This document shows, piece by piece, positions 3,040 to 33,268 of a stretch of 64,000 nucleotides of DNA. The notes beneath the pieces were generated by a model. It was not told the origin of the DNA. It ran no database searches and saw only the letters and a program-made list of their open reading frames with translations. The stretch is from positions 13,231-77,230 of IMG/VR virus record IMGVR_UViG_3300050026_000282. The stretch is one strand, 5' to 3'. The first letter of the stretch is position 1; each line of letters opens with the position of its first letter. The position numbers and the translations under genes are program-made. The DNA is from a virus. Taxonomy: Duplodnaviria; Heunggongvirae; Uroviricota; Caudoviricetes.

Positions 3040-3267
3040 TCACCCGAGAATCTTCTGCTTCCACATGGGCCAGGTTTTCACCTCGGCCGACGCCCTTTCC
3101 AGAAAGGCGTCGAAGCGGGCCTTGTCTTCCAGCCGGTCTAGCTCTTCCAGCGCGTCAAGCAAGAAGTGCTCCAGGTCGGAACGCTTGCCAAAGGCAGCCC
3201 GTGGCTGCGTCTTACCGTCCTGGACAATGCAGTGCCAGCCGCCCCTGGTTTCAACTCGGTAACTCAT
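3040..3267 (-). CDS. hypothetical protein (75 aa)
   Basis: Internal start MSYRVETRGGWH of track ORF 3040..3504; ATGA overlap with the methyltransferase stop. Confidence 0.35.
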   Translation of the reverse strand: MSYRVETRGGWHCIVQDGKTQPRAAFGKRSDLEHFLLDALEELDRLEDKARFDAFLERASAEVKTWPMWKQKILG

Positions 3268-4022
3268 GCGGCCTCCCAGATTCGGCGGTGGATGTAGTCG
3301 GTTCGCGCCAGACCGTGTTCCTTGGCGATCTCGTCGCAGTAGTGCTTGTCGAGTTCGATCAAGGTGCAGGAAAGACCGAGTGCCTTGCAGACTCGCAACG
3401 TTGTGCCAGTTCCGCCGAACGGGTCGATCACTGATCCTCTGGGCGGCGTCGTCAGCTTCAGGCAGCGTTCGACTAGGCCCTCGTTGAGTTGGGTCGGATG
3501 CCAAGAGCGCCGCTGCTTGCTGTTGCCCGTCACACGAGGGAAATCAAAACAATCGCCCGGCACTCGGCCGCGAGGATCGGCCCGCTTGTCGCCGTGCTCC
3601 TGCCGCCAGGAAGCAACCCGGATTGCATCCGGGTAGAGCGGCGCGTCGGTCCAGCGAATGCGGATCAGTGGCCGGTGGTTGTTGCCCAGGTCGTGGTGGT
3701 TGTGCTGCCCGAAGGTGAAGATTTGCACGCACGGCTTCGCTTCCAGTCCGCCGGCCCGTAGTCCGACTACATCGGTGACGATCTTGCCAACCTCGAAGGT
3801 CCACTTGGCGTTGTACGAGAACCAAACGGTTTTCGCCTGGAGCACGAAGCAACTGAGCCACTTGCGGAGAAGGCCGATATAGTCGCTGTCAGAGTGACGA
3901 TCACTGTACTCGTTGTAGCCGAGGCCGATGTTATCCGGCGGGTCGGCAAACAACGTATCCCATTGGCGGCAACCGACAATGTCCAGGTAATCAAGACAGT
4001 CGCAGTTGACGAGTTGATTCAT
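3264..4022 (-). CDS. DNA methyltransferase (N6-adenine/N4-cytosine, beta-class order), motif IV reads DPPD
   Basis: FADPPDNIGLGYNEY (motif IV) near the N-terminus and IDPFGGTGTT (SAM motif I) near the C-terminus; the PF01555 assignment is from memory. The aromatic residue of D/N/S-PP-Y/F is replaced by Asp. Confidence 0.7.
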   Translation of the reverse strand: MNQLVNCDCLDYLDIVGCRQWDTLFADPPDNIGLGYNEYSDRHSDSDYIGLLRKWLSCFVLQAKTVWFSYNAKWTFEVGKIVTDVVGLRAGGLEAKPCVQIFTFGQHNHHDLGNNHRPLIRIRWTDAPLYPDAIRVASWRQEHGDKRADPRGRVPGDCFDFPRVTGNSKQRRSWHPTQLNEGLVERCLKLTTPPRGSVIDPFGGTGTTLRVCKALGLSCTLIELDKHYCDEIAKEHGLARTDYIHRRIWEAA

Positions 4023-4024
4023 GC

Positions 4025-4471
4025 CTAGCTCCGCAAAAGGGCCTCAGCGATATGCACAGCTTCATCCAGGGTCGCTACCCGGAATCCCATTGCCTCGCGG
4101 ATCATGGCGTGATCGTGAGGGTTCCCCTGCGGCTCGATGGCGACAATGATCGGGATGCCGTTGTCCCAGGCCCAGGCGATCTCCATGACGGTGCCGAGGC
4201 TCGCCTTTGTCGCGCCCAAGAGGTTTACCAGGAGCACGTCGCATCGCGTGCAGTCCCAGTGGTCGCGGGTCATAATTCCGCGCGGGCAGGCCAGAGGGTT
4301 CTCGTAGTCGTTCCCCACGCTTGTCTCGTTGGCAAGGAAGTCCTTACCCCGCATCGGGTCGAGGCTGGTGATCCCGAATGATTCCAGATCGGCTCGGACT
4401 AGCTTCCGCCAGTCGGTGCAGCCGCCGTAAGTGCAACCCGTAATTGGTCCAGCGAGATAGACGGTGCTCAT
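4025..4471 (-). CDS. nucleoside 2-deoxyribosyltransferase-like protein
   Basis: Internal start MSTVYLAGPITG with GAGGAAGAA RBS; the nucleoside 2-deoxyribosyltransferase family (recalled from memory) signature VYLAGP...W...DLESFGI..LDP ... DVLLVNL...SLGTVMEIAWAW..GIPII. Confidence 0.55.
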   Translation of the reverse strand: MSTVYLAGPITGCTYGGCTDWRKLVRADLESFGITSLDPMRGKDFLANETSVGNDYENPLACPRGIMTRDHWDCTRCDVLLVNLLGATKASLGTVMEIAWAWDNGIPIIVAIEPQGNPHDHAMIREAMGFRVATLDEAVHIAEALLRS

Positions 4472-4701
4472 TTCTTCCTCACGGCTACATAGGTCCCAAT
4501 CCAACCGCCAACTGCGAAGGCAAAGCAAGCGAGGATGCACTGCTGAACGACCAGGACGGTCGAGACGAGGATACATAGGTAAATCAGCACACTCATGTTG
4601 GCCGCGTGAACGGGCCGCTTTGCCTGCACGTCCGCGACACAGTTGGCCCAGACAATGTCCTGGGCAAAGCCACAGATAAAAGCGAGTAGAATGACCATCA
4701 T
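4468..4701 (-). CDS. small membrane protein (77 aa)
   Basis: Internal start MMVILLAFICGF... of track ORF 4468..4938, two hydrophobic helices; ATGA-coupled. Confidence 0.4.
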   Translation of the reverse strand: MMVILLAFICGFAQDIVWANCVADVQAKRPVHAANMSVLIYLCILVSTVLVVQQCILACFAFAVGGWIGTYVAVRKK

Positions 4702-4799
4702 CGGGTCTTCCTCATTCTGGCTAGCGACTCGCGCCGCTCGCGCTGCCGCTTGGCGAGTTCTCGGTTCGTGCGCGACCGCCGGATGATTGGTCGAGTCAT
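4698..4799 (-). CDS. basic micro-ORF (33 aa, MTRPIIRRSRTNRELAKRQRERRESLARMRKTR)
   Basis: ATGA overlaps on both sides place it in the coupled chain 4987->4468. Confidence 0.2.
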   Translation of the reverse strand: MTRPIIRRSRTNRELAKRQRERRESLARMRKTR

Positions 4800-4987
4800 T
4801 TGTAAAGCACCTTGATGCTGTAGCCAAAGATGGCCGCGTGTTTGGTGTATCCCATTCGCTCCGAGAACAAAGGCGGGTGTCGTCGCCGGTCTGCAACGTG
4901 CAGGCCCACTCCGAAGATGCGAAACCACCCGTAGCCATCCCCGATGCCGAACGAAAACCAACCGTAGTTACCAGCGTGGTATCTCAT
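4796..4987 (-). CDS. Gly/aromatic-rich small protein (63 aa)
   Basis: ORF track; ATGA overlap with the stop of 4984..5763. Confidence 0.3.
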   Translation of the reverse strand: MRYHAGNYGWFSFGIGDGYGWFRIFGVGLHVADRRRHPPLFSERMGYTKHAAIFGYSIKVLYK

Positions 4988-5763
4988 AGTCCCAGTTCCT
5001 CCCTGGCCCAGGCTGTACCGAAGTAGCGCCGGATGAACCGGCGTAGGTTCTCGGCGTCCGGGGCACTTCGCAGCTTCTTGATGTACTCCCAGTCGCGGGG
5101 CGACCCTGACGAAATGATGATCTTCATTACCCGCCCGGTCTGGTACTTGAGGAACTCTCGCATCTGGGGGTCAGTTGACTGGGCGGCTTGGGGCACGCAC
5201 ATGGAATAGACGGCAAGCTCCAGTGCATACCGAACGGTCTCGCCACGGTCTGCGATGCCGAGAGCCATTCGGGCATTCGCCCCGTTGGCATAGGCAGAGA
5301 GTTCATCAAAGAGCCTGCACAGCGGCTTGTCCTGCCAGTACGGCTCCTGTTGGTAGAAGTAGAGGTTGTAGACGCCGCCCTGCAATGACGGTGGGATGTA
5401 GCCGGCGACGGTCGAGAGCGTGGTCCCTGGCTCTTGGATTAAAGCGGCTCGATCCTGTAGCACATAGAAGGCTGGGCAACGGTATGTGTCTCGCAAGACC
5501 GAGTTGATCCCGTGCGTGCCTTCGTGAACCCATCCGACCAAGTCGTCCGGGTCTCGGTAAGGATTTCCGGCCAGCAAGTGGCTCTCGATGTCCCTCACCA
5601 CGGGCGGCAAGTCACCTACTGGCCGGACCGCCGGGACTCCCGTCCAGGTGATCGGGATGCTCGTGAACACCTGCGGTGACGGCAACGGATTGAGGGCTGC
5701 CGCGAGGACTCCGACCGCTATGGCGACACCGCAGGCTACGATATTCAGTTTGTCGTGAGTCAT
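4984..5763 (-). CDS. membrane-anchored HExxH protein (putative zincin-like metallopeptidase)
   Basis: N-terminal hydrophobic helix then VGWVHEGTHGINS (HExxH). Confidence 0.45.
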   Translation of the reverse strand: MTHDKLNIVACGVAIAVGVLAAALNPLPSPQVFTSIPITWTGVPAVRPVGDLPPVVRDIESHLLAGNPYRDPDDLVGWVHEGTHGINSVLRDTYRCPAFYVLQDRAALIQEPGTTLSTVAGYIPPSLQGGVYNLYFYQQEPYWQDKPLCRLFDELSAYANGANARMALGIADRGETVRYALELAVYSMCVPQAAQSTDPQMREFLKYQTGRVMKIIISSGSPRDWEYIKKLRSAPDAENLRRFIRRYFGTAWAREELGL

Positions 5764-6551
5764 CGCAATAGCCCCTCAAAGGGTTCCGCATGATCGTCCA
5801 TCCAGGACCACATGCTGACCGTCCCGTCGTCTTCGATGCGGGTGAAGCCGTCCCTGTCCCGACACCAACAGCCGCAATTGAAGTGGTGGTTGCCAATACG
5901 ACCCTGCTGGTGGCTGTGGCCTAGCACGACCACGTCGGCCTGCTTCGCCTTCCGGTACTTCTCGACGTTGTCGATCATTTCGTCCCGCCGACCGGCTTGT
6001 AACGTGAGGTGACGCCACAAGTTCAACGGGGCTTCCAGAGCGCTGATGAAGCTGTCTTCAACGAGGTGGCCGCGATGGACAGGCCCTTTGTTCTTCTCTT
6101 CGAGTAGGGCCGAGATAATCGCGGTGATCTCGCCGATGCCAGGATTGATAGCCGAGCAGTAGTTGTCCGATTCATGCCCGTGCAGGAAGGCGAACTTTCG
6201 GTTGCCGATGACTGACTCGAACGGGCCGCTCAGTGTCGGCAGCTTCAGGCCACGGAGTTCGATGAAGGTGCCAATGAACTCGGTCAAAGCGCTGTCGTGG
6301 TTCCCCGTCACCCACACAGGCGTGCCAATCCCGGTGAACTCGATGGCCGTCAGTAGGTCGCGGTAGGCCATGACCGACCGGCTCAGATTGCACTGCCACC
6401 AGTCGAGGAGATCGCCAAGGATTCGGAGTTGGCCACCCTGGCCATCCAAGTAGTCGAGGAACCGCCGGAACCGGTCTTCGCCACGGTAGGCGAAGCAATC
6501 ACGCGGCCCTCGGTCGCAAAGGTGGAGATCACTGATACAGAAGATAGGCAT
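5760..6551 (-). CDS. metallophosphoesterase (calcineurin-like)
   Basis: MPIFCISDLHL, ILGDLLDWW, VTGNHDS, FLHGHESD, GHSHQ motifs. Start taken at the internal ATG to avoid a 58-nt overlap. Confidence 0.7.
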   Translation of the reverse strand: MPIFCISDLHLCDRGPRDCFAYRGEDRFRRFLDYLDGQGGQLRILGDLLDWWQCNLSRSVMAYRDLLTAIEFTGIGTPVWVTGNHDSALTEFIGTFIELRGLKLPTLSGPFESVIGNRKFAFLHGHESDNYCSAINPGIGEITAIISALLEEKNKGPVHRGHLVEDSFISALEAPLNLWRHLTLQAGRRDEMIDNVEKYRKAKQADVVVLGHSHQQGRIGNHHFNCGCWCRDRDGFTRIEDDGTVSMWSWMDDHAEPFEGLLR

Positions 6552-6555
6552 GTGT

Positions 6556-7539
6556 TTATCCGCGATAGCGGCTCCGGGTGATTTCGTGGAAGAAGTCCTC
6601 TCGGCTCGAACCATCCGATTGCAACCCGACTGCCGAACTGTCGAGCGTCTCGCACCGTGCGTCGGACACGGCTTTGGTTAGGTCCGGGAAGATATGCCCG
6701 CTGGTGATCGCGGCCCAGCAGCGCTTGATGCGGGCGGCCAATTCCACTTGATAAGTGGAGCTAACCCTGGCCCGGTAGCCCGCCACGCGAAGCAGCGGCT
6801 TGTAGCCGGTCGGTTTGGCGACGATCTGATGGATGGACATGACCACGTCATCGTCACCAATCTTCTCGCCCAAGGCCCAGCCGTAGAGTGAAAGCTGGTC
6901 GGCCCAGGCCGTGTTGGACGTTTCCAGGGGGTACTTGTTGACGGTCATTCCGCCGTGACGGTAGGGGATGAACTTCTCGTGTTCCGTGCCGTGACTCTTC
7001 GAGTGCTTGATGGCATCGTAGCCGTCTCGGCACAGCATGTAGCTCGGATGCGGGCTGGTCGCGCTCTTGCTGCAATAGCCCGACAGCTTCCAGTCATGCA
7101 CAATGTCAACTTCGGTGACGAATTGGCAGTCCGGTTTTCCGGTGAAGGGGACACCGTCAATAACAGCGTCCACAGTGAACTCGAAGCGGGGCGGCTTCTT
7201 AGCCGCCTTCAGCAGTGTCAGAATCTCGCTGTAGAAGCCAGAGAGACGGTAGGCGTCGAAGATGTAATCGACTTCGCCCAGCGCCCAGTCGCGGTTCTGG
7301 GGCTCCACTTGGGACTCGAACAGGGCCTCGAAGCTGTACTTCGGGTCCGAACCAGCCCCAAATAAGTCCGCATGTAATGCGGACTTGACCCTGGCGTCGA
7401 AGACCGAGCCGGCAGCCGCCGGCCGCTCTTGCGGAATACGGGGCGACCGATTGTTGCTGAGGTACTTCAGGTAGAACTCGTCCTGGTTCTTCTCCCAGAG
7501 TGAAAAGCCAGAGTACGAAAGGCGCTGAATGGTTCTCAT
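6556..7539 (-). CDS. PD-(D/E)xK-family nuclease-like protein
   Basis: GKPDCQFVTEVDIVHDWK resembles the D...(D/E)xK core. N-terminus SYSGFSLWEKNQDEFYLKYL resembles the start of Cas4/RecB-like exonucleases. Internal ATG (MRTIQRLSYSG) ATGA-coupled to 7536 stop. Confidence 0.45.
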   Translation of the reverse strand: MRTIQRLSYSGFSLWEKNQDEFYLKYLSNNRSPRIPQERPAAAGSVFDARVKSALHADLFGAGSDPKYSFEALFESQVEPQNRDWALGEVDYIFDAYRLSGFYSEILTLLKAAKKPPRFEFTVDAVIDGVPFTGKPDCQFVTEVDIVHDWKLSGYCSKSATSPHPSYMLCRDGYDAIKHSKSHGTEHEKFIPYRHGGMTVNKYPLETSNTAWADQLSLYGWALGEKIGDDDVVMSIHQIVAKPTGYKPLLRVAGYRARVSSTYQVELAARIKRCWAAITSGHIFPDLTKAVSDARCETLDSSAVGLQSDGSSREDFFHEITRSRYRG

Positions 7540-7724
7540 AAGTTCTCCCAAATCTGCTCGTGGTAGTAAAACATCACGAGCTTAATCAGCAGCGTGACGC
7601 CCGTGAAAACAAGGCAGCTTCCAATGCTCCCGAAACAGATGTAAGCCAGTCCCAGGCACACGACACTCGACACAACCTCCCAAGAGACCGCTTTCCAGAA
7701 GGTATGCCGACGTGTGCTTGTCAT
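7536..7724 (-). CDS. small membrane protein, DUF2061-like (62 aa)
   Basis: VSWEVVSSVVCLGLAYICFGS...VTLLIKLVMFYYHEQIWENL; internal ATG start. Confidence 0.4.
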   Translation of the reverse strand: MTSTRRHTFWKAVSWEVVSSVVCLGLAYICFGSIGSCLVFTGVTLLIKLVMFYYHEQIWENL

Positions 7725-7876
7725 GCGATGATGTCCCAAAAGTGAAGTCTGGTGAGGAACCCAGCGTCGAAGTTCGCTTCCGTGTCACTCCACTGGTCGT
7801 CATCCCACGATGACTCCCCACGGTCCAAGTCGTCTTGATCTTCGTCAGTCCAGTCGTCGGGCAAGTTACTCATCAT
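7721..7876 (-). CDS. small acidic protein (51 aa; about 17 Asp/Glu)
   Basis: Read by hand from the sequence: MMSNLPDDWTDEDQDDLDRGESSWDDDQWSDTEANFDAGFLTRLHFWDIIA. ATGA overlaps both ends. Confidence 0.35.
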   Translation of the reverse strand: MMSNLPDDWTDEDQDDLDRGESSWDDDQWSDTEANFDAGFLTRLHFWDIIA

Positions 7877-8412
7877 TTGCTCTCGAAGTTGAAGAAATAC
7901 CAGCGCTTCATCAGGTCGATCTCCAGGTCCCGGTCGATATGCTGGAGGTAGTCACACACTTCATCCCAAGTCGAGAAGATGGTCTCGTGCGGGATCATTC
8001 CGAAGAGCCAGCCAGGAGCACACTTCTTCCCCTGCTCGACGTGGACGATGATCGGTTTCTTCGACCGGTTGGCCGTGGTGATCTCTTCGATGGTGCCGAA
8101 CGCATAGACTTCCGTGTCGATGTTGACAATGAGGAAGTCGGTGATGTCAACCAGTCGGAGATCAACGCAGCGAATCTCTTTCACGGCCCGGCAGACTTCG
8201 TTGTAGTCGCCGCGCTCTTTCGCCGCGTTCAGCTTGGCCCGGCTCTCCGGGTCTTCTTTGGCCATCGTGGTCGGCTTGCAGACCGGGTCGGCCCACAAGA
8301 TGCCCAGCCCGGCCAGGCGGGTCTTGACGTAGTTGCGCCAGCCGGCCCCGCCGTCTGCCGCTCGGTCCATCGCTCCGCATAGATAGCAACGGGTGTTCTT
8401 CAGTCGGTTCAT
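7873..8412 (-). CDS. nucleoside 2-deoxyribosyltransferase-like protein, paralog of 4025..4471
   Basis: Shares the same skeleton as 4025..4471: CYLCGAMDRAADGGAGWRNYVKTRLAGLGILWADP and ...DFLIVNID...FGTIEEITTA..KPIIVHV. Confidence 0.45.
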   Translation of the reverse strand: MNRLKNTRCYLCGAMDRAADGGAGWRNYVKTRLAGLGILWADPVCKPTTMAKEDPESRAKLNAAKERGDYNEVCRAVKEIRCVDLRLVDITDFLIVNIDTEVYAFGTIEEITTANRSKKPIIVHVEQGKKCAPGWLFGMIPHETIFSTWDEVCDYLQHIDRDLEIDLMKRWYFFNFESK

Positions 8413-8588
8413 CGTTGCTCCAGTTCTCTTGCAAGCCAGTTTTCAATGGGCTCTTCGTAGCCGACCGGGTCTTGGTAGTGACGGCTCACCGTGCAGGACG
8501 CCCAGAGTCCGCGAGGGTGGGCGTACTCGATGCGAACAAATCCATCGGGGAGAAACTTAACAGTCCTTTCGCATTGCTTTAGGTACAC
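8409..8588 (-). CDS. possible small ORF (about 59 aa, GTG start)
   Basis: C-terminal part of track ORF 8409..8807, whose upstream part overlaps deoC. Stop is ATGA-coupled to 8412. Confidence 0.2.
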   Translation of the reverse strand: MYLKQCERTVKFLPDGFVRIEYAHPRGLWASCTVSRHYQDPVGYEEPIENWLARELEQR

Positions 8589-9229
8589 GGCAGTAACTCC
8601 AGGAATCTGCTCGACCCGAGTCGCGTGCAGCCCAAGTCGAGATACCGGGCCGCGTCCTCGTAGGTCTTGATCCCACCGCTGGCCTTCACTCCGCACTGGC
8701 CGTTGACAGTCTTGACCATTGTTTCGACAGCCTCGGGCGTTGCATCGCCGGCGAAGCCGGTTGATGTCTTGACGAAGTCCACTCCGAAGTCGATGCAGAT
8801 ATGGCACACTTCACTGATTTGCGTTCTGCTATAAAAGCTCGTTTCGAGAATGGCCTTGACCAGGATGCGGTCGCGGTGAGCCCCGGCCACGATCAGACCG
8901 AGTTCGTTGAACAAGGGCCGGCTGTCTCCGTCGAGGAACCGGCCATAGTTGAGGACCATGTCCAGTTCTTGTGCCCCGTCTTGGATCGCGGTAGCAGCTT
9001 CGTAGAGCTTCGCTTCCGGCGTCGTATTTCCGTTCGGGAAGCCAATGACGCAACTGACGTTGCGGAATAGGTTCGCCGCCAGACTCACGTACACTGGTGA
9101 GACACAGACTGACTTGATCTTGTGCGCGTTCGCCAAGGCACAGGCACGCGCCACATCATTGGCCGTGGCGGTCGGCTTGAGTACAGCGAGATCAAGGGCG
9201 GCTGCAATTTGCTCTTTACTATGACTCAT
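8579..9229 (-). CDS. deoC: deoxyribose-phosphate aldolase
   Basis: DLAVLKPTAT, GFPNG, KLYEAATAIQDGAQELDMV, catalytic-Lys region VKAILET...FVKTSTGF, VKASGGIKT, RLGSS. Confidence 0.85.
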   Translation of the reverse strand: MSHSKEQIAAALDLAVLKPTATANDVARACALANAHKIKSVCVSPVYVSLAANLFRNVSCVIGFPNGNTTPEAKLYEAATAIQDGAQELDMVLNYGRFLDGDSRPLFNELGLIVAGAHRDRILVKAILETSFYSRTQISEVCHICIDFGVDFVKTSTGFAGDATPEAVETMVKTVNGQCGVKASGGIKTYEDAARYLDLGCTRLGSSRFLELLPCT

Positions 9230-9377
9230 AACCTTGGAACCTTTTCTGTTTAGGTGCGTCTTCGGGATTCTCTTTCGCCATCCGGCGATGCAACCGGTTG
9301 AGTTGCTTCTTCACCCACTTGCGGAATCCGTTGTGACTCTTCCATGTTCCGTCAAGCTGACCTTTGTACGTCGCCAT
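9219..9377 (-). CDS. small basic protein (52 aa)
   Basis: Read by hand from the sequence: MATYKGQLDGTWKSHNGFRKWVKKQLNRLHRRMAKENPEDAPKQKRFQGYES; GGAG RBS; 11-nt overlap with deoC start. Confidence 0.3.
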   Translation of the reverse strand: MATYKGQLDGTWKSHNGFRKWVKKQLNRLHRRMAKENPEDAPKQKRFQGYES

Positions 9378-9669
9378 CCAGGTACTCCTCGGGCAGGAAG
9401 TAGTGCGGCTCTAATCCTGCGACGTTGTAAATGATGATCTCGTTGTGGAACTCCACGCCCTCGAAGATGTCCAAGGGCAGCGACATGATGCTCGTTATCT
9501 TGGCCCCGCAATCTCGCAGCCATCGCCAGCGCTTACTCTTCCGACGCTGGTTCAAACGGAAGCCCATCGGGACGAACAGGGCGACAGGAATGTCTTTGCC
9601 GAACAACTCGATGATGTGCTCCAGGAACACCTCGGGATATAATCGCTTGCCGGGCGCGCCGTTGAAGGG
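9352..9669 (-). pseudogene. C-terminal fragment of an N6-adenine methyltransferase gene split by the RIT element
   Basis: Minus strand from 9669 reads (P)PFNGAPGKRLYPEVFLEH... The upstream in-frame stop lies inside the element IR. Confidence 0.6.
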
Positions 9670-9698
9670 CGGGTTTTATGTGGCGCATTCAGTTATGT
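9670..9698. repeat. RIT terminal inverted repeat, left copy (reverse complement of ACATAACTGAATGCGCCACATAAAACCCG)
   Basis: Perfect 29/29 match to the reverse complement of 13035..13063. Confidence 0.8.
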
Positions 9699-9766
9699 GG
9701 CGTCCAGCACGAATCGCCAGCGATTTAAGGGATCGTTACTGTGCTGAACGCCACATAATGCGTGTC

Positions 9767-10825
9767 CTACAGGGTTCGCAGAAACTCCATGAGTCCTGGA
9801 TTCTTACGCCACGGCTTCTTCGGTGTGCCATCCTTGATTTCGCACTTTGCAAGCGCTTTGGCCTTCATTTCCAGATCGACCTCCGCATACACATTGGTCG
9901 TACTGAGACACACATGACCCAGCCAGGCTCGAATCGTGTTGATGTCCACGCGGGCTCGAAGCAAGTGGGTCGCGGTCGTGTGGCGAATCGTGTGGGGACT
10001 GACACGTTTCTTCGCCATCGACGGCAGTTTCGTTGCCACCTGAGCGGCGTACCGTTCGACCAGCGCATGAATCCCGAATCGCGTGAGCGGCTGCCCACGC
10101 CGGTTGAGGAAGACATGCTGGCATTCACCACGACGGTCAATGAGAGGTCGCAATTCGTCAACCGTCTTTGGCCACAGCGGACAACGGCGGGGCTTGTTTC
10201 CCTTTCCGTGGATGAGAACGGACGAGGAGTCGCGGTTGGATGCCACACCGAGGTCGAGGTCGCCGATCCGTACTTGGGCTACCTCGTCGGCCCGAGCACC
10301 AGTGTTGTACATAAACAGAAGTATCGCGTAGTCCCGACGGCCTTGGGCAGTGCGACAGTCGGGCGCTTTCCGCAACGCATCCATCTCGTCCTTTTCCAAG
10401 TACCCGACCAGCGGTCGCGCGACCTTCTTCGACGCGATGCTCTGAATCTGACCGACCCATTCCAGGTGTTCCGGGCCGTGCTGACCGATGAATCGCGCCA
10501 AGGAACGAATCGCAGCGAGACGCTGATTTCGTGTGGAAATCCCGCAACCGTGAGTTTTTTCCAAGTCTTGGAGAAAAGACCGGGTGCGGGCTGGCGATAC
10601 ATCCACCACAAGAAGTCGCTCGATCCGCCGGTGGGCGGCGCGAGCGACGAACGGCAGGAATTGTAGCAACGCATCCCTATAGCTCTTCTGCGTATTGGGG
10701 GCGAGATTCCGTTCGGCAACGAGGTGCTCCAACAAGAACCGGCGAACCCAGGGGCTAAGCAAATCGGTGTTAGGCATGACGGCGCTCCTTCCCGGCATAG
10801 CGCTCGAAGCGCTGGCTGGCCTCAC
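9767..10825 (-). CDS. ritC: tyrosine recombinase, RitC-like (third of trio)
   Basis: HTIRHTTATHLL (HxxR) and LGHVCLSTTNVYAEV (catalytic Tyr); upstream Arg in TGARADE. Probable real start MPNTDLL at about 10777; the track ORF overlaps ritB by 56 nt. Confidence 0.75.
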   Translation of the reverse strand: MRPASASSAMPGRSAVMPNTDLLSPWVRRFLLEHLVAERNLAPNTQKSYRDALLQFLPFVARAAHRRIERLLVVDVSPARTRSFLQDLEKTHGCGISTRNQRLAAIRSLARFIGQHGPEHLEWVGQIQSIASKKVARPLVGYLEKDEMDALRKAPDCRTAQGRRDYAILLFMYNTGARADEVAQVRIGDLDLGVASNRDSSSVLIHGKGNKPRRCPLWPKTVDELRPLIDRRGECQHVFLNRRGQPLTRFGIHALVERYAAQVATKLPSMAKKRVSPHTIRHTTATHLLRARVDINTIRAWLGHVCLSTTNVYAEVDLEMKAKALAKCEIKDGTPKKPWRKNPGLMEFLRTL

Positions 10826-11705
10826 GAAGAAGCTCGGGCGTCATGCTCAGGTACACCTGCGTGTCCCGCAAGTAGACGTGGCCGAGATAGACTGACAGGT
10901 GATGCAGGAGTCGCTGCACGTCGGCACCTTGCTGATACCAGGAGGTGAGGCGGTGAACGGCGAACGTATGTCGAAAGTCGTGAATTCGCGGTTGCTGGTG
11001 TGTGTCAGTTCGACGGATGCCCGCGTGATTGCACAAAGTTCGGAACTTCGGTTCGAGTCTCCAGTGCCGAACGGGACCGCCTCCCTGTGTCGTGAAGAAG
11101 GGGGCGTCGGCTGGCCGTCTCTTCGGCCGAGTGCGGTCGTACTGAACCAAGACCCGGTTCAGTTGCGGTCCCACGGGAACCAGTCGCGTCTTGCCGAACT
11201 TCGTGTTCCGAATCGTCAGCACGGACCCACGCAAATCCACGTCGGTGCGAGTGAGGTTTGTCGCCTCACAGATACGCAAGCCGGCTCCATAGTACAGCAG
11301 AATCATTGTGCGGATCGTCACCGGCTCCATTGTGCTGGTGCCCTGCGGATAGGACTCGATTACCCGGAGAAGACGGCGGATTTCTTCCTGTGTGTAGATG
11401 TAGGGAACGAAGACCGGCGGACGCTGCGGCATTACGGTCGGAAGAGGGGGCGTAGTGATGTGTCCTCGGCTTGCGGCATATCGGAAGAAGCACCGCAAGC
11501 AGCTCAATCTGGTGAACCACGTCTTGGTCACTGGTCTGGCTTTGCCAAGGAACGCATCCACATGCCGAACGCGAACATTGGCAATGCTGGCTCTCGGGCC
11601 GCGCGTGCGGCCGAAAGCCCGTAGAACTACCGCATCCGAGATGAAGGATGATCCAAGCGACCGTTGATAGGAGATGTACTGCTCGATCAGGCGTTGGAGG
11701 TTCAT
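10770..11705 (-). CDS. ritB: tyrosine recombinase, RitB-like
   Basis: HDFRHTFAVH and LGHVYLRDTQVYL; 311 aa; 4-nt overlap with ritA. Confidence 0.75.
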   Translation of the reverse strand: MNLQRLIEQYISYQRSLGSSFISDAVVLRAFGRTRGPRASIANVRVRHVDAFLGKARPVTKTWFTRLSCLRCFFRYAASRGHITTPPLPTVMPQRPPVFVPYIYTQEEIRRLLRVIESYPQGTSTMEPVTIRTMILLYYGAGLRICEATNLTRTDVDLRGSVLTIRNTKFGKTRLVPVGPQLNRVLVQYDRTRPKRRPADAPFFTTQGGGPVRHWRLEPKFRTLCNHAGIRRTDTHQQPRIHDFRHTFAVHRLTSWYQQGADVQRLLHHLSVYLGHVYLRDTQVYLSMTPELLREASQRFERYAGKERRHA

Positions 11706-12961
11706 AGGACACCTCCCATATCAAAGTCCGCCACCTGACGGAGGCCAACGAGATCGACCTTGGCGTAAATCCGCGTGCTGTCGGGGTCCATGTGCCCCAA
11801 TTGGTCGCCGATCTCCTTGAGTGACAGGCCGGCGGCCAGCAGTCGCGTCGCGCAGGCATGACGCAGGGCATGAGGCCCGTAGTGCGGAAGCGACACGTCC
11901 AGAGATCGCAGGCGTTTAGCAACCACTCCCCATATCGACGAGTTCACCGGCCGAAATGGAGCCCGCAGTGATAGAAACACTTCCCGATGCGATGATCGCG
12001 GTCGCACCTCTTGCAGGTAACGCAGGATGGCATCGCCGACAGATCGTATTAGCGGATAGGTGCGGACCCGTCCCGTCTTAGAAGACACAACGCGGATCAC
12101 CTCATGCTCCCAGTCGAAATCCTCCAGCCGCAGACGGCAGACCTCCCCGCGCCGGAGGCCGTAGATGGCCAGCAGCATCAGTATCGGGCGGTTACGGATG
12201 TTGGACGGCTTGTCGCCTTCAGTCATGGCAAGCAAACGCCGCACATCGTCCCACGACGGCCCCAGTGGCAACGACGCCTGCGAGAAGACCCGTGGATACC
12301 GAATCGACGCCGCCAATCCTTTACGGCACCAGCCCCTCGCTTCTGCATAACGAAAGAAAGCCCGAAGTGAGTCGGCACAACGTATAATCGTCCTTTTTGA
12401 ATAACCTTTTGGTATGAACAACTTCCGAAAGGCCATGTCAAGCCACTGAGGTGTGATCTTGTGCAGGGAATCCTCCTTGACGTGCAGTCGATTGAAGAAC
12501 TGCTTGATCCACCAACAATGATGGACAATGGTCACGGGCGACAGTTGCGCTTCATGCTCCATGTAGTCAGCAAACGCTTTGATCTTGTTCGCCCAAGGAG
12601 TCAACGGAGCAGGTCGCTCTTGCAGACGCCCGATGTACCGAAGCCACCGTATGGCAAGCGGGCAAAGAGAGCAATAGAAGCGGCGTTGGTTGGCTATCAT
12701 GCGTTCCACTTCGGCGAGAGTCAGAACCTTTCGAGGCCGAACGGCCGGTCCAATCGCGTTGGCAATCGCAAGCAGACGACTCGCGTTGACCAGCAAGGTA
12801 CTCCGGGCGTAGCCCTGATTCGCAAGATGCGTCAGGAAGGCAAGCCGCTCTTCCAGCATGGGGCCTTTGCGATAACGCGCGATTGTAATGGGACATTTAT
12901 ACAGTTGATCGAACATAGTCGAACCTCCGGGGAGAAAGGGAAAACAGAACATTCTCCCCAT
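11702..12961 (-). CDS. ritA: tyrosine recombinase, RitA-like (largest of trio)
   Basis: LRRGEVCRL, HALRHACATRLL, LGHMDPDSTRIYAKV; 419 aa with long N-terminal SAM-like/core-binding region. Confidence 0.75.
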   Translation of the reverse strand: MGRMFCFPFLPGGSTMFDQLYKCPITIARYRKGPMLEERLAFLTHLANQGYARSTLLVNASRLLAIANAIGPAVRPRKVLTLAEVERMIANQRRFYCSLCPLAIRWLRYIGRLQERPAPLTPWANKIKAFADYMEHEAQLSPVTIVHHCWWIKQFFNRLHVKEDSLHKITPQWLDMAFRKLFIPKGYSKRTIIRCADSLRAFFRYAEARGWCRKGLAASIRYPRVFSQASLPLGPSWDDVRRLLAMTEGDKPSNIRNRPILMLLAIYGLRRGEVCRLRLEDFDWEHEVIRVVSSKTGRVRTYPLIRSVGDAILRYLQEVRPRSSHREVFLSLRAPFRPVNSSIWGVVAKRLRSLDVSLPHYGPHALRHACATRLLAAGLSLKEIGDQLGHMDPDSTRIYAKVDLVGLRQVADFDMGGVL

Positions 12962-13034
12962 AGCGTAGCACCTAATTATGTGGTGCAGAAAACGGGCAAA
13001 ATGCTGAAATACGGCTGGAGGAACGAGCTAGACA

Positions 13035-13063
13035 ACATAACTGAATGCGCCACATAAAACCCG
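13035..13063. repeat. RIT terminal inverted repeat, right copy ACATAACTGAATGCGCCACATAAAACCCG
   Basis: Perfect inverted copy of 9670..9698. Confidence 0.8.
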
Positions 13064-13086
13064 TTATGTGGTCCACCACATAACGG
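13061..13086. repeat. 26-bp palindrome CCGTTATGTGGTCCACCACATAACGG at the RIT right junction
   Basis: Two inverted (C)CACATAA half-sites; same 9-mer family as the subterminal GCCACATAA repeats. Confidence 0.6.
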
Positions 13087-13422: not shown

Positions 13423-13432
13423 CAGTAACTCC

Positions 13433-14968: not shown

Positions 14969-14972
14969 TGGT

Positions 14973-22774: not shown

Positions 22775-24091
22775 TTAGTTTTCCAATGGTCCGACTTCAC
22801 GGCCGCCATCAATGATGTAACGCGTCGGGCCATCCTTCTCGGAAGGATGCCGCAATTTGCAGTTGAGCCGCCAAGTGATTCCGTGCTTCGGGTTGACGCC
22901 ATGCAACCACTGTGCAGGCTCTCGATAACCAGCCAGGGAGTTGTAGGAGAACGGATCGGTCCCCAGCCACGCACCGTTGACCATCAACTCGCCATCGATG
23001 TCCGAGAGGGTACTGGCCGAGTGGTGATGGCCCGCGCAGTAGTAACGGACACGCTGGCCTCCGGCGGCAGCACCGAGAGCAATGAGTCCCTTCTGTCGGC
23101 GGACCATGCCGTACCAGGGGATGCCCAGGTTGCTCCGGCAGTCATCGCCGTGCGAGACGTTGAAGCCGACACCATTGATGTCGATGTTCGCGCTCCAAGC
23201 GTCGGGAATCTGGAAGTTGACGTTGACCATGTCGCGGCAGTGAAGACGGGCGATCTCCGCAACCAGATAATCCCAGTTGTCATTCGCCCCGTAGTAGTCC
23301 TTCTTCTGCGAACGGCGGCCGTGGTTTCCAGACAGGTAGATGACGTTGACCTCACCGAAGTGGCGGGCGAAGTCGCGGTACATCAGGGCGTGAAGCTGGC
23401 CGATAGCGAGGCAGTTCTTGAACTGATTGCGATAGTAGGATCGCTCGCAGGCCCGATGAATCTCGCCGCTCGTGTGATCTCCATAGGCAAGCACCCAGAG
23501 CACGGGGAAGTAGAACTTCGGAGCGAGAGTCTCTTGCGTCCACTCCACGACCGTCTCCACGAGGCGCTCGGCACGAGCACAGGAGATCGGGAAATTGTAC
23601 TCCTCGAAGCCGTTGACCTGCTCGGGACGGACCACTTGATCGTGGTGGCCGTCACTAATGTGGAGCACGCAATGCTCCCTGATCTGGGCTTTGGGACGCG
23701 ACTGGATCGCCGGCGGAAGTGCCTTAAAGGGCTTGATCCGCGTATCCATTTCCTTAGTGACGGCCTTGAACAGGCCGGCAAACTTCGCCCCCGCCTTGAC
23801 CTTGGCTTTTTCTCGGTTGCGCTCCTCGGTCAGGTGGACGACCTCGGCCTCCAACTCCATCACCCGCTCGTCGGTCGGATCGTAGCTCTGGATCGTTTTA
23901 TGTTGACCGCCCGGTTTCTTCGGGCACGGTTCGTAATCGCCCGGCCAGGGCACGTCTTTGTGAGCGCGGCCAGTGGCGATGTCAGAGACTAGAGAGCGAC
24001 TGATCTTGCAAGCCTTAGCGATTCCCGGCTGCGGCTTGCCCTCTACGATCAACGCTTTGATCTTAGCGACTTTGGCTTTTGACAACATCAT
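22775..24091 (-). CDS. metallophosphoesterase with N-terminal HTH
   Basis: KISRSLVSDIATGR HTH; LHISDGHHD, AYGDHTSG, LSGNHGRR, CAGHHH phosphoesterase motifs. Confidence 0.6.
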   Translation of the reverse strand: MMLSKAKVAKIKALIVEGKPQPGIAKACKISRSLVSDIATGRAHKDVPWPGDYEPCPKKPGGQHKTIQSYDPTDERVMELEAEVVHLTEERNREKAKVKAGAKFAGLFKAVTKEMDTRIKPFKALPPAIQSRPKAQIREHCVLHISDGHHDQVVRPEQVNGFEEYNFPISCARAERLVETVVEWTQETLAPKFYFPVLWVLAYGDHTSGEIHRACERSYYRNQFKNCLAIGQLHALMYRDFARHFGEVNVIYLSGNHGRRSQKKDYYGANDNWDYLVAEIARLHCRDMVNVNFQIPDAWSANIDINGVGFNVSHGDDCRSNLGIPWYGMVRRQKGLIALGAAAGGQRVRYYCAGHHHSASTLSDIDGELMVNGAWLGTDPFSYNSLAGYREPAQWLHGVNPKHGITWRLNCKLRHPSEKDGPTRYIIDGGREVGPLEN

Positions 24092-24559
24092 TTAGACCTT
24101 ATAGGACCTGATCCGTGACGGCTGGAGCCGGGACTTGTCGAAGACGACAATCGCTATTGCTTGCACCAGGCCGCATTTCGCGTCACCAAACTTCGGACGA
24201 CCGTGAAGGAAACGAATCTCAGCGGCTTTCATGCAGTAGGTATGCCACCAGTTCGTGTTCGTATGGGCCGGGACGAGCATCACCACGACGCAGTCCGACT
24301 CAAACGCCTTCTGCACCCAACGCCTCAAACGAGCCTTATCCGAGTTGAAGGGAGGGTTGAGCCAGCAAACACCTTTCCACTCTTGCTGTAAGGCATCTTC
24401 CTCGGCCGTGTAGTAAACCGGACACTTAGCGTTGGCTGAGTCAGCAGCCAAGTCGATGGTGAAGTGAAACTCCTCATTCAGCCTGTTGAACAGGGATTGA
24501 GGAGTAGACCATGACTGGCTGCGTGACTCGAACCTCGGCTGTCTCTTGGGCAACAACAT
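24092..24559 (-). CDS. DNA N6-adenine methyltransferase, phage Dam-like
   Basis: WSTPQSLFNRLNEEFHFTIDLAA ... CWLNPPFN, the phage Dam-like signature (family assignment from memory) including NPPF. Confidence 0.75.
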   Translation of the reverse strand: MLLPKRQPRFESRSQSWSTPQSLFNRLNEEFHFTIDLAADSANAKCPVYYTAEEDALQQEWKGVCWLNPPFNSDKARLRRWVQKAFESDCVVVMLVPAHTNTNWWHTYCMKAAEIRFLHGRPKFGDAKCGLVQAIAIVVFDKSRLQPSRIRSYKV

Positions 24560-25636
24560 TTACAGCGTCTTTGTAGCGGGAGCGCGATGGGTGGCCCGAA
24601 TGACAGAGTCGATAAGTTGCTGTAAGGCACAGGGGACAGCGGCCGGACCATCCACGATGGCCTTGTGTGGCATAATGACGGGCCGGCTTGGGTCAATCGC
24701 CCATTCCAGCTTGTACTTCACGGCCCAGTCCCACATGCGGCGAGTCGGAGCAATGAAGTTGAGCCCAGCACCGGCACCGCGAACGAGGAGGCCAATGCAC
24801 TTGCCATTCTTCAGGTAGACGCCGCCGCCACTGCTGCCGGGATAGCCCATGCAAGATGTCTGATCGAAGACTTTCCCCGTGTTGAGCAAGTCGCGGTCGG
24901 TCTGAGAGATAATCCCGTAGCTGACACTGTCGTACAGCCCTAGCGTGCAGCCGACGTGGACAAGTTCGGTGCCGATTGGCGACGGTTTGCCGGAGTCGTC
25001 GAACTCGGCCGAGGCGTCAGTGAAGTTGTCCTTCAACACTTCCAACAAAGCCAGGTCGTCGCCCACTTCGGGATCACTGTAGGCCAGGACTTTCGCCTCC
25101 GTTCGCACCTCACCAACCCAGCGGCCGTCAACCCGTCGCTCCTGGTAGATCGTCGCGCTCTTGAAAGTGCCGTTCGGCTGCATCAGCAATTGAGCAACGT
25201 GGCCGGCCGTCCAGACGAATGTGCGCTTGACGTTCCCTAGCTGCCGCGTGACGAGCACTCCGGTGCCGCAGCCGTGGTCGGCCTCCACACGCACAGAAAT
25301 GTCTTGCAACATCTGGTGAGGGGCCGCAGTAATCAGCTTGGCGAGCACGTTTTCGTCAGCAGTGACACGCTTGTTGAGGAGATGCGTAGCATCGGCAATG
25401 CTATTCGCGGTGGCGGCAGCATAGTCAGCAGTGCTACGCATGGCAGAGGCAGTCGAGGCGGCTTCGCTAGCAGTGCTACTCACAGCATCAATGCGCCTGG
25501 CAACAGCGGCCTCGTCGGCTACTGCCCTGTCACGTAATCCCAACATGCCGCCACCAACGCAACCGAGCAACACTCCGATCACAGTGAACAACACGGCACA
25601 GATCACAACATGCACCTTCATCAGAGGCTCCTTCAA
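24560..25636 (-). CDS. membrane-anchored trypsin-like serine protease (S1 family)
   Basis: N-terminal helix, then His TAGHV, Asp DDLALLEV, Ser GYPGSSGGGVY. Confidence 0.6.
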   Translation of the reverse strand: MKEPLMKVHVVICAVLFTVIGVLLGCVGGGMLGLRDRAVADEAAVARRIDAVSSTASEAASTASAMRSTADYAAATANSIADATHLLNKRVTADENVLAKLITAAPHQMLQDISVRVEADHGCGTGVLVTRQLGNVKRTFVWTAGHVAQLLMQPNGTFKSATIYQERRVDGRWVGEVRTEAKVLAYSDPEVGDDLALLEVLKDNFTDASAEFDDSGKPSPIGTELVHVGCTLGLYDSVSYGIISQTDRDLLNTGKVFDQTSCMGYPGSSGGGVYLKNGKCIGLLVRGAGAGLNFIAPTRRMWDWAVKYKLEWAIDPSRPVIMPHKAIVDGPAAVPCALQQLIDSVIRATHRAPATKTL

Positions 25637-29154: not shown

Positions 29155-29185
29155 TGCGAGGATTAACAACCGCCGCGTCAATCAA

Positions 29186-31840: not shown

Positions 31841-31842
31841 CC

Positions 31843-32043
31843 ATGTACGAACGACCTCTATCACACGCGGACATTCTTGCGATTGCGGATCATCTGAACG
31901 GAACAGGTGAGTTACTGGGGATCGCCATGAGCGAACTCGGATTCAACCCGCGTCTCTACGGAGACGCCGAGGTTGAAAAGTGGCTGGAGGAAGAAGCCGG
32001 CCTGGTCCAGGACAGCGACAGTGGAATTTGGTTCTTTGAGTAG
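31843..32043 (+). CDS. hypothetical protein (66 aa)
   Basis: Internal ATG MYERPLSH of track ORF 31807..32043, immediately after the primase stop. Confidence 0.3.
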   Translation: MYERPLSHADILAIADHLNGTGELLGIAMSELGFNPRLYGDAEVEKWLEEEAGLVQDSDSGIWFFE

Positions 32044-32051
32044 ACCCCAGG

Positions 32052-32690
32052 TTGCAAATCATGCCCACTCTTTTTCTCGGCTTCGGCCACTACTCCCGCA
32101 CAGGGAAAGACACGACCGCCAATTACTTCCTTAGCCACTACGGCGACGGAGTTCTCAAGCGGTCCTTTGCCTGGAAGCTCAAGCAGATCACCTACGAGCT
32201 ATACGCTTGGGCTGGCCTGATGCCGCCGGAGTATTACGAGACGCCGGAGGGGGCAAAGGCGCGTGACATCAAGCTGCCTGGCTTGGATATGACGCCCGTT
32301 GAAGTCTGGGTGGCATTCGGGACCGAGGCCATTCGCAAGAACGTCTACCAGGGGACGTGGGTGGACTACTTGCTGAAGAATGACCACAAGTGCGACGTGC
32401 TGGTCATCCCTGACGTGCGTTTCCCCAATGAAGCCGAGGCGATCAAGACTGCGGGCGGGAAGATCGTCAAGGTCGTGCGACCAGGCTATGGGCCGCGCAA
32501 CACAGTCGCCGACCGGGCCTTGATCGGCTACGACGGGTGGGACTATGTCATCGGCGAGTCGGGTGAAATGGATGATCTTGACAACTGGGCCTGCTTGTTC
32601 GCTATGGCGGCTCGGCGAGAGATCGCGTGGCCCCGTCAAACGGCGGAAGAGCGGAAGGCAGCCCTGACAGTAGAGAGGATTGAACAGTGA
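32052..32690 (+). CDS. deoxynucleoside monophosphate kinase (T4 Dnk-like)
   Basis: LGFGHYSRTGKDTTANYF P-loop variant, as in T4 gp1 GxxRSGKDT. Confidence 0.6.
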   Translation: MQIMPTLFLGFGHYSRTGKDTTANYFLSHYGDGVLKRSFAWKLKQITYELYAWAGLMPPEYYETPEGAKARDIKLPGLDMTPVEVWVAFGTEAIRKNVYQGTWVDYLLKNDHKCDVLVIPDVRFPNEAEAIKTAGGKIVKVVRPGYGPRNTVADRALIGYDGWDYVIGESGEMDDLDNWACLFAMAARREIAWPRQTAEERKAALTVERIEQ

Positions 32691-33268
32691 AGCACCTGAA
32701 AACCAACATCATCGCCGCCCTAGACTTCGAGACGACGGGCACCGACCCAAAGACGGCCGAGATAATCCAGATCGCCGTCGTCCCGCTGGGCAACGATCTG
32801 CTGCCGCTCAAGGAAGCCTTCTACACCCTTGTGCGACCAGAGCATCCTGAGAGTGCCGACCCGGCCGCTCTGGTGATCCACGGGATCACTCTCGAAGAGT
32901 TGGAAGAGGCCCCAGATGCGACGAAGGTCGCCGATCTCCTGTACGAGTGGGTTCGGTCGCTCAAGTTGCCCGTGGGTGGCAAGGTCATCCCGCTGGTCCA
33001 CAACTACCCCTTCGAGTACGGCTTCTTGACCGCCTGGCTTGGCGCGTCAATGCGGGACGAGCTATTTCACTATCACCCACGGGATGCAATGACCTTCGCG
33101 CTCGGCCTGAATGACCGAGCAGCCTTGAAGGGCGAGGAGACACCTTTTGCAAGCGTCGGACTCTTGGACCTTTGCCAGCACTTCCACGTCACGAATCCGA
33201 ATCCGCACGATGCCTTGTACGACTCGCTGACCGAAGCGACTATCTACCGAGAGTTACTGCTGCTATGA
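32687..33268 (+). CDS. DnaQ-like 3'-5' exonuclease (DEDDh)
   Basis: Exo I ALDFETTG, Exo II HNYPFEYGFL, Exo III HDALYDS. Confidence 0.75.
   Translation: MKHLKTNIIAALDFETTGTDPKTAEIIQIAVVPLGNDLLPLKEAFYTLVRPEHPESADPAALVIHGITLEELEEAPDATKVADLLYEWVRSLKLPVGGKVIPLVHNYPFEYGFLTAWLGASMRDELFHYHPRDAMTFALGLNDRAALKGEETPFASVGLLDLCQHFHVTNPNPHDALYDSLTEATIYRELLLL

Follow-up and report, generated by a model that had tools for sequence, protein, structure and literature searches.

Two nucleoside 2-deoxyribosyltransferase-like paralogues linked to a DeoC aldolase in an uncultivated tailed-phage lineage: a putative cassette for deoxynucleotide breakdown or pool editing

Two divergent genes of the nucleoside 2-deoxyribosyltransferase (NDT) superfamily, here called NDT-A and NDT-B, were identified together with a gene for a class I deoxyribose-5-phosphate aldolase (DeoC) in a tailed-phage genome (Duplodnaviria; Heunggongvirae; Uroviricota; Caudoviricetes) recovered as IMG/VR record IMGVR_UViG_3300050026_000282. 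The window analyzed here is a stretch of 64,000 nt (positions 13,231 to 77,230) of the 77,230-bp source contig, about 13 kb of which lie outside it. An entire uncultivated phage lineage has the DeoC/NDT cassette as a conserved trait; it is not unique to this phage. With moderate confidence, we read NDT-A and NDT-B as a probable pair of N-glycosidases of 2′-deoxynucleoside 5′-monophosphates (dNMPs), possibly also acting as transferases of 2-deoxyribose 5-phosphate (dR5P), which would supply dR5P to DeoC in a pool-editing or catabolic cassette. The three genes are as follows (positions are those of the window).

4025-4471, minus strand: NDT-A; PF05014 at 31.0 bits (cut-off 28.8) and PF15891 at 29.7 bits.
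7873-8412, minus strand: NDT-B; no Pfam match; phrog_19940, a family common to NDT-A.
8579-9229, minus strand: DeoC, class I deoxyribose-5-phosphate aldolase; TIGR00126 and PF01791 (1.7e-16).

The genomic context is the strongest evidence in this analysis. A scan of 2.9 million viral contigs (IMG/VR) for this clade of DeoC identified 24 loci, and NDT-B is positioned downstream of DeoC in 21 of them, mostly within 15 nt (DeoC identity, 42-65%). Most of the 24 loci keep the synteny of the window, which comprises PolA, an NT5C-type nucleotidase, ligase, DeoC, NDT-B, a PD-(D/E)XK nuclease and a methyltransferase. In locus L008, which harbors the closest NDT-A relative on a long contig (P0128, 71% identity), the gene order is DeoC, NDT-A, NDT-B, with a 4-nt overlap at the first junction and a 1-nt gap at the second; in L015 (IMG/VR contig 3300027917_000032), the same three genes are joined by 4-nt start/stop overlaps at both junctions. 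A 177-aa open reading frame (ORF) upstream of DeoC in L008 was considered as NDT-B and rejected, the true NDT-B being the 195-aa ORF downstream. A functional tie of both NDT-like genes to DeoC is thus supported by overlapping operons as well as adjacency. In the window, the spacer between DeoC and NDT-B (8413-8578) holds the tail of an out-of-frame ORF whose end overlaps the start codon of NDT-B in the sequence ATGA; no standout promoter or terminator signal was identified in this spacer, and none in the region 3000-9700 exceeded the shuffled background.

The phage aldolase itself matches TIGR00126 at the equivalog level (195.6 bits, cut-off 117.3), in agreement with its assignment as DeoC in a preliminary description of this DNA, and shows no PHROG family match. 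The motif residues D90 (ELDMV), K154 (VKTSTGF) and K182 (VKASGGI) are invariant among the three aligned phage DeoCs and presumably correspond to D102, K167 and K201 of the Escherichia coli enzyme. A tblastn search of INPHARED found NDT-A in four records and NDT-B in one, and the DeoC matches in this database are almost all in unannotated contaminant-like contigs or huge phages; the set is therefore near-absent from cultured phages, which accords with the earlier statement that it is not a standard phage module. The literature search on a phage DeoC/NDT cassette, or on either NDT family, returned only the work on DmtZ (described below) and the metaGPA preprint; in the literature covered, there is no account of such a cassette or of either family.

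NDT-A and NDT-B had been described as paralogues sharing a sequence skeleton and a Glu residue. Their paralogy is real, because both the alignment of the two sequences (29% identity, E 5e-6, BLASTP) and that of their family profiles (98% probability, E 1.3e-13, hhalign) are significant, and both the skeleton and the Glu are kept as family-invariant residues. The two families, with 1696 and 457 database matches, respectively, are metagenomic and strikingly conserved, many members showing 50-75% identity (50-64% for NDT-B matches). AlphaFold2 models built on the family alignments reached a pLDDT of 96.9 for NDT-A and 92.4 for NDT-B, and both models match the structures of Chroococcidiopsis nucleoside transferase, MilB, BcmB and DNPH1 (Foldseek probability 1.0), with 8pqs (E 2e-7), MilB 4jem (E 7e-7) and DNPH1 8rpt (E 1e-5) among the matches to NDT-A, and 9emx (E 2e-6) and DNPH1 8rqd (E 7e-5) among those to NDT-B. 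By the flavodoxin-like alpha/beta fold of these models, both proteins belong to the NDT superfamily. The invariant residues of NDT-A include D70, S91, G93, T94 and E97, with Y5 near-invariant (at least 90% of members); those of NDT-B include Y10, D84, G106 and E110. The Tyr/Asp/Glu triad is kept in both paralogues, so that the loss of the Glu/Tyr arrangement, which the preliminary description had named among the outcomes that would speak against its proposal, was not seen. The register of the triad in both families agrees with that of MilB, BcmB, 7m5h and DmtZ, these correspondences being drawn from sequence, profile and secondary-structure alignment and not from 3D superposition.

The NDT superfamily includes nucleoside transferases and nucleotide N-glycosidases, and the residue six positions before the nucleophilic Glu (Glu-6) distinguishes these groups, being an Asp in the true transferase 7m5h and a Ser in the CMP N-glycosidases MilB, BcmB and BlsM, as aligned by HMMER. 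The transferase-type Asp for the 5′-OH is absent from both NDT-A and NDT-B. Around this Ser, the three CMP N-glycosidases have the motif S-P-G-T-H-x-E-I-G-W-A, and the invariant NDT-A motif S91-x-G93-T94-x-x-E97-I-x-W100-A aligns to it, giving a shared S-x-G-(T/V)-x-x-E-(I/L)-G/a-W/r-A pattern. DNPH1 has the same Ser-x-Gly arrangement as NDT-A. In NDT-B, Glu-6 (position 104) is Ala, Pro, Thr, Ser or Ile, and Gly (G106) alone is kept of the Ser-x-Gly motif. The position six residues after the strand-1 Tyr (Tyr+6) is Asp or Glu in NDT-B (D16) and Thr or Ser in NDT-A. A Ser or another uncharged residue at Glu-6 is predicted to be a signature for a 5′-phosphate over a 5′-OH, and by this residue pattern both proteins look like dNMP-acting enzymes of a hydrolase/transferase hybrid type. 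As in DNPH1, both families retain the strand-1 Tyr, which predicts 2′-deoxy substrates; MilB and BcmB act on ribonucleotides, and Phe replaces this Tyr. The product of DNPH1, dR5P, is the substrate of DeoC. NDT-A and NDT-B differ from the DNPH1/MilB group, with which both models share the fold, in carrying an additional conserved segment, G-(N/K)...H, behind strand 4, in an invariant W-R after helix 1 and, for NDT-B, in the lack of the Ser; the roles of that group are in antibiotic synthesis or 5hmdUMP sanitation, whereas the present proteins belong to a phage infection.

The nearest functional precedent is DmtZ, a phage-encoded member of the NDT superfamily, as are NDT-A and NDT-B. It is a dAMP N-hydrolase and dR5P transferase that was assayed by a DeoC-coupled reaction, and its forms include gp53 of Gordonia phage Ghobes and the N-terminal domain of the DmtZ-DutZ fusion of Arthrobacter phage Wayne; its authors describe how uncharged, space-saving residues make room for the 5′-phosphate and state that the Tyr excludes ribo substrates (NAR 2026, PMC12884076). 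Ghobes gp53 was located as DmtZ through the published residues Y6, D12, P57, N77, E103 and W124. Its 5′ pocket site is Thr97-Val98-Gly99, so that DmtZ resembles NDT-A and NDT-B in having a small or hydroxyl residue, not Asp, at this site, and it also has the Pro after strand 2; the DmtZ triad is Tyr, Asn and Glu, and NDT-A and NDT-B have Asp in place of Asn. DmtZ converts dNMPs into base and dR5P and can transfer dR5P; the same cleavage is predicted for NDT-A and NDT-B, which may also transfer dR5P. The NDT-B model also matches DmtZ structurally (BFVD). By sequence, hhalign of DmtZ against the NDT-family alignments gave probabilities of only 1.1% (alignment A1) and 4.1% (A2), and tblastn of NDT-A or NDT-B against INPHARED gave no match to Ghobes, which is present in that database, or to Wayne. 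The systems also differ in that DmtZ is part of the PurZ0 Z-genome system and is without DeoC linkage, whereas the present system has a phage DeoC with two linked paralogues, and no PurZ or other Z-pathway genes were found in the window. Ghobes gp53 (AOE44404.1, L198:22693-23178) is misannotated as "deoxyuridine triphosphatase" in GenBank, and the Archimedes homologue carries the same label in BFVD; this misannotation could propagate.

Outside the lineage, neighboring genes were counted in the 80 best viral NDT-A loci and, for NDT-B, in loci L113-L192. The neighbors were called from tblastn; clustering of ORFs in the high-GC loci picked many wrong-frame ORFs. A Dnk-like dNMP kinase is located no more than 7 kb from NDT-A in 25 of the 80 loci, and close downstream (~20-570 nt) in ~21; a T5 A1-like gene is directly upstream of NDT-A in 24; and a protein of the DUF5664 family (PF18909), which has dATP/dGTP pyrophosphohydrolase activity, adjoins NDT-A in eight, a pairing that recalls DmtZ, whose step follows that of a dNTP pyrophosphatase. 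BFVD includes viral proteins in which an NDT-like fold is joined to a DUF5664 or Nudix domain, and in Tunturiibacter phage Tunturi_5 the NDT-A homologue lies beside a ribonucleotide reductase gene. The cultured T5-like Bradyrhizobium phage BDU-MI-1 (KY940711, 49098-52259) has an A1-like gene for host-DNA degradation, a dNMP kinase and a homologue of NDT-A that is labeled "hypothetical", and this triplet, with NDT-A between the A1-like and Dnk genes, also occurs in L025, L037, L046, L058, L062 and others. In T5 itself, the neighboring pre-early gene encodes the Dmp 5′-deoxyribonucleotidase, and by analogy NDT-A may be a functional counterpart in the disposal of host dNMPs in T5-like phages. In the present phage, as in T5, host-derived dNMPs could be diverted from re-use, the window containing a nucleotidase of the NT5C/Dmp type; the T5 disposal route is not known to involve a DeoC or NDT-like enzyme.

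A separate group of phages with a low GC content (29-35%) carries NDT-B beside GMP reductase, which is found ~200 nt downstream in 58 of the loci L113-L192 (e.g., L163:10750-11877; NF003470, 484 bits, cut-off 397) and hints at a role in G-to-A purine nucleotide conversion in AT-rich phages. In 51 of the same loci, a 214-aa DeoC homologue lies 7-9 kb downstream of NDT-B, and this group is thus a second lineage that pairs NDT-B with a DeoC-family protein. These homologues (L144:17263-17907, L160:18194-18841 and L165:19200-19859) match TIGR00126 at 56-63 bits, below the cut-off, and are without both catalytic lysines, VKTSTGF being replaced by IYPSTGY and VKASGG by IICNGN; they may be pseudo-aldolases or dR5P-binding proteins. 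Taken across the survey, each recurrent neighbor makes dNMPs, consumes dNMPs or consumes dR5P.

The remaining genes named in the preliminary description are all present, within a few bases of the positions given there, and only Dnk is not on the minus strand; they are listed here together with the putative exonuclease at 6556-7551 and the RIT element.

3264-4022, minus strand: N6/N4 DNA methyltransferase, directly downstream of NDT-A; PF01555 (N6_N4_Mtase), E 4.6e-24.
5760-6551, minus strand: calcineurin-like metallophosphoesterase; PF00149, 3.1e-9; motifs DLH, GD, GNHD and GHSH all present.
6556-7551, minus strand: putative PD-(D/E)XK-type exonuclease; phrog_69, a weak match (4e-4).
9670-13063: RIT element of 3.4 kb with three tyrosine recombinases, inside an N6-adenine methyltransferase gene.
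12976-13422 and 9352-9630, minus strand: the two halves of the split N6-adenine methyltransferase; the intact homologue matches PF02384 (N6_Mtase).
16259-16861, minus strand: NT5C-type 5′(3′)-deoxyribonucleotidase of the HAD family; PF06941 at 26.2 bits (cut-off 24.8, marginal) and phrog_2643 (6.6e-11).
22775-24091, minus strand: SbcD/Mre11-like recombination nuclease; phrog_284 "exonuclease", 6e-33; no Pfam match.
24092-24559, minus strand: Dam methylase, intact.
32052-32690, plus strand: T4 Dnk-like dNMP kinase; PF21448 at 36 bits (cut-off 27.1) and phrog_139 (1.5e-29).

The assignments of the deoxyribonucleotidase and the kinase were upheld, the former by PF06941, phrog_2643 and the DxDxV nucleophile motif (D8-M-D10-D-V), the latter by PF21448, phrog_139 and a GKDT P-loop (S-R-T-G-K-D-T). 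Two metallophosphoesterases had been proposed, of which 5760-6551 stands, with PF00149 and all of its motifs; the phrog_284 match of 22775-24091 makes the second an SbcD/Mre11-like nuclease and no nucleotide-pool enzyme. Three adenine methyltransferases are present as described, with 3264-4022 and 24092-24559 intact and the third split by the RIT element. The view of the whole 30-kb gene set as one module did not survive, since the SbcD-like nuclease, the phosphoesterase and the methyltransferases belong to an ordinary repertoire of genes for replication, recombination and anti-restriction; the phosphoesterase at 5760-6551 is a generic context gene with only a putative role in a pathway. Among the 24 related loci, the NT5C-type gene is syntenic in 13, the PD-(D/E)XK-type exonuclease, which could supply dNMPs, is just downstream of NDT-B in 18, and a homologue of the 3264-4022 methyltransferase is found in 21, mostly at 48-74% identity.

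Two further genes lie among those listed. A sigma-70/ECF-like factor (16852-17439, minus strand) with regions 2 and 4, all of whose matches are sub-threshold, has a 10-nt overlap with the start of the NT5C-type gene, which suggests phage-directed transcription of the nucleotide-gene block. A trypsin-like serine protease (24560-25636, minus strand) is encoded among the replication genes, and a shorter homologue of the same Pfam family (L015:8447-9070) is positioned just upstream of DeoC in L015.

The RIT element is bounded by perfect terminal inverted repeats of 29 nt (9670-9698 and 13035-13063) and contains recombinase ORFs at 9767-10825, 10770-11705 and 11702-12961. The two methyltransferase halves are contiguous as one ORF in L101, L097 and L099, and in relatives the intact N6-adenine methyltransferase gene lies directly upstream of DeoC. 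That the repeats are perfect suggests a recent insertion; the exact 29-mer had no match in 185,579 reference genomes. The element is context and lies outside the proposed pathway.

From the homology, fold, conserved residues and linkage described above, we infer the following substrate, direction of flux and physiological role. NDT-A and NDT-B would act on dNMPs and not on nucleosides: the conserved Glu, placed by Tyr and Asp, would attack C1′, the free base would leave, and a deoxyribosyl-5-phosphate-enzyme intermediate would form on the Glu, to be resolved either by water, giving dR5P, or by another base in a dR5P transfer of the kind that DmtZ performs. The co-transcribed DeoC would then cleave dR5P into glyceraldehyde 3-phosphate and acetaldehyde. 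The bacterial deo regulon (deoCABD) uses DeoC for the same terminal step and obtains dR5P by phosphorolysis and a mutase (DeoA/D and DeoB), whereas here dR5P would come directly from N-glycosidic hydrolysis of dNMPs. Dnk (dNMP to dNDP) and the NT5C-type enzyme (dNMP to deoxynucleoside) would provide competing fates, three in all, and the phage could thereby keep some dNMPs for its own DNA while destroying or re-basing others. Recovery of carbon and energy and the avoidance of dR5P build-up would be added benefits; dR5P is toxic in E. coli deoC mutants. That the genes are so closely coupled to a catabolic aldolase argues for the breakdown of dNMPs or the editing of their pool and not for synthesis of a new base, and the presence of two paralogues side by side suggests that they most likely have different base specificities or form a hetero-oligomer; the active sites of the NDT family are built across subunit interfaces (PMC12884076).

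Several observations weigh against this dNMP-level interpretation. The best NDT-A sequence matches in the whole PDB are MilB, BcmB and BlsM, yet these are weak (E ~0.1 to 1.6), and the sequence similarity of NDT-A and NDT-B to DmtZ is not significant. Toward the nucleoside transferases, both models have the Chroococcidiopsis NDT ranked slightly ahead of MilB and DNPH1 by Foldseek; NDT-A is above the PF05014 threshold, although narrowly (its L015 homologue, at 23.9 bits, is below it, and NDT-B is below all Pfam thresholds); and an invariant Pro just after strand 2, P39 in NDT-A and P43 in NDT-B, is described as a transferase-type trait, a feature also present in DmtZ (PMC12884076). In a metagenomic study, one phage NDT was active on deoxynucleosides, with three others inactive. 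As to context, NDT-A is 3.4 kb from NDT-B in the window, the DeoC/NDT-B spacer there is 166 nt versus 0-15 nt in relatives, and an intact DeoC is not nearby in 79 of the 80 NDT-A loci and in ~60 of the 80 NDT-B loci. Moreover, the shared synteny of the DeoC-NDT-B contigs indicates that the pairs come largely from one phage lineage and do not represent independent events.

The resemblance to the classical NDTs (EC 2.4.2.6), which include the Lactobacillus NDT and PDT enzymes and the Chroococcidiopsis protein, is the basis of an unlikely alternative, in which the NT5C-type enzyme dephosphorylates dNMPs, NDT-A and NDT-B serve as genuine transferases, of which one handles purines and the other pyrimidines, that re-balance deoxynucleosides by base swapping, and DeoC only clears the dR5P that host DeoA/D and DeoB produce. 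The family threshold passed by NDT-A, the top Foldseek match of both models, the shared Tyr/Asp/Glu triad and strand-2 Pro, and an NT5C gene that is syntenic in the lineage all fit this scheme, and M2, a metagenomic phage NDT, uses dA and dZ nucleosides as donors. However, in place of the Asp that binds the 5′-OH in the classical enzymes, NDT-A has an invariant Ser and NDT-B has Ala, Pro or Thr, and the partner genes here act on or release phosphorylated (deoxy)nucleotides or consume dR5P. Pfam and PHROG scans of the window revealed no phage gene for a deoxynucleoside kinase, a phosphorylase or a phosphopentomutase, translational coupling to DeoC is hard to explain unless dR5P is the direct product, and three of the four novel phage NDTs tested in the metagenomic study were inactive on nucleosides.

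Less probable still appears the exclusion of a canonical base, in the manner of DutZ and DmtZ in Z-genome phages, with one or both enzymes destroying one canonical dNMP or re-basing it onto a modified base, so that the virion DNA would contain a non-canonical base. The DmtZ precedent speaks for it (PMC12884076), as do the statistical association of PF05014 with dZ phage contigs and DNA polymerase A in metaGPA, the family-A DNA polymerase encoded by this phage, and the acidic Tyr+6 residue of NDT-B, which resembles the essential Asp12 of DmtZ; the window, moreover, leaves out ~13 kb of the 77-kb source contig. Exact-protein look-ups for this remainder gave no record with P0001 or the ORF at 63435-63989 and only contigs of 8.6 and 1.9 kb with P0121. 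Within the window, however, no genes for PurZ/PurA-like proteins, DatZ, MazZ, DUF5664, dUTPase, hydroxymethylase, DpdA or base glycosyltransferases were found, and Pfam and PHROG scans that included ~35 further window ORFs gave no thymidylate-synthase-like, dUTPase, MazG, Nudix or PurZ match. Three adenine methyltransferases are kept, two of them intact, which argues for ordinary adenine in the phage DNA; hundreds of widely differing phages carry members of the NDT-A and NDT-B families; and no sequence relationship of either protein to DmtZ could be detected. Evidence for a non-canonical base in this phage was thus not found within the window. Of the earlier proposal of a DNA modification or salvage pathway, N-glycosidic cleavage at the dNMP level remains as the best reading, whereas the part concerning non-canonical nucleotides is not supported, no base-modification gene having been found in the window. 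Very improbable is a counter-defense role, in which the NDT-like fold, a relative of TIR, SLOG and retron NDT effectors, would hydrolyze NAD-derived or nucleotide immune signals and the link to DeoC would be incidental: remote fold similarity to the SARM1 TIR domain and Sir2 appears low in the Foldseek list, and viral proteins of the TIR and SLOG types are found low among the BFVD matches, but neither protein was matched in a PADLOC scan, the conserved neighbors (DeoC, Dnk, DUF5664, GMP reductase and ribonucleotide reductase) belong to nucleotide metabolism, and the NDT-type Tyr/Asp/Glu triad is intact.

We therefore retain dNMP N-glycosidic cleavage coupled to DeoC as the favored interpretation. 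A more far-reaching form of it is put forward only tentatively: in this lineage two specialized NDT-superfamily enzymes and the phages' own aldolase may constitute a hitherto undescribed, self-contained route from dNMP to base and dR5P and on to glyceraldehyde 3-phosphate and acetaldehyde, used to turn deoxynucleotides from host DNA into fuel and free bases or, if the enzymes share the dR5P transfer of DmtZ, to re-base dNMPs and re-tune the dNTP pool independently of de novo synthesis. In a variant of this route, the pair would remove methylated or damaged dNMPs derived from host DNA before recycling by the kinase, which by analogy would be a viral counterpart of DNPH1 sanitation.

The genome in which the cassette resides is siphovirus-like, with a GC content of ~58% in the window. 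Structural genes occupy the right half of the window (tape measure, P22-type coat, scaffold and GpA-type terminase), and the left half carries replication and nucleotide genes, almost all on the minus strand; no tRNAs were found in the window. An ORF of 1098 aa with good coding statistics (35464-38760, minus strand), which sits between the modules for replication and for the tail, matches nothing in Pfam, PHROG or PADLOC. No INPHARED entry was matched by 3264-9229 in a megablast search, indicating a phage without a sequenced close relative. The block of ligase, DeoC, NDT-B, nuclease and methyltransferase genes also occurs inside contigs of 137 kb to 1.07 Mb that are binned to metagenome-assembled genomes of Thermoguttaceae, Planctomycetaceae and Planctomycetia (L201, L203, L204 and L211), which suggests that the hosts of this phage lineage are Planctomycetota and that some of its members may be integrated prophages.

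NDT-like genes in hundreds of phage genomes are labeled "nucleoside 2-deoxyribosyltransferase", almost always without evidence, and DmtZ (2026) is the sole phage member shown to act on dNMPs. The chemistry considered here is already known from DNPH1, MilB and DmtZ; the phage DeoC/NDT module is recurrent and conserved and is not a one-off. Two large conserved phage families appear, from their residues, to carry a nucleotide-type rather than a nucleoside-type pocket, and a phage DeoC is tied to NDT genes across a whole lineage. If the proposed activity is true, phages would possess, in addition to phosphatases and dNTPases, a third route for disposing of deoxynucleotide pools or re-shaping them, and many genome annotations would need re-labeling; the two families could also become a source of new dNMP glycosidases or dR5P transferases for use in nucleotide biocatalysis.

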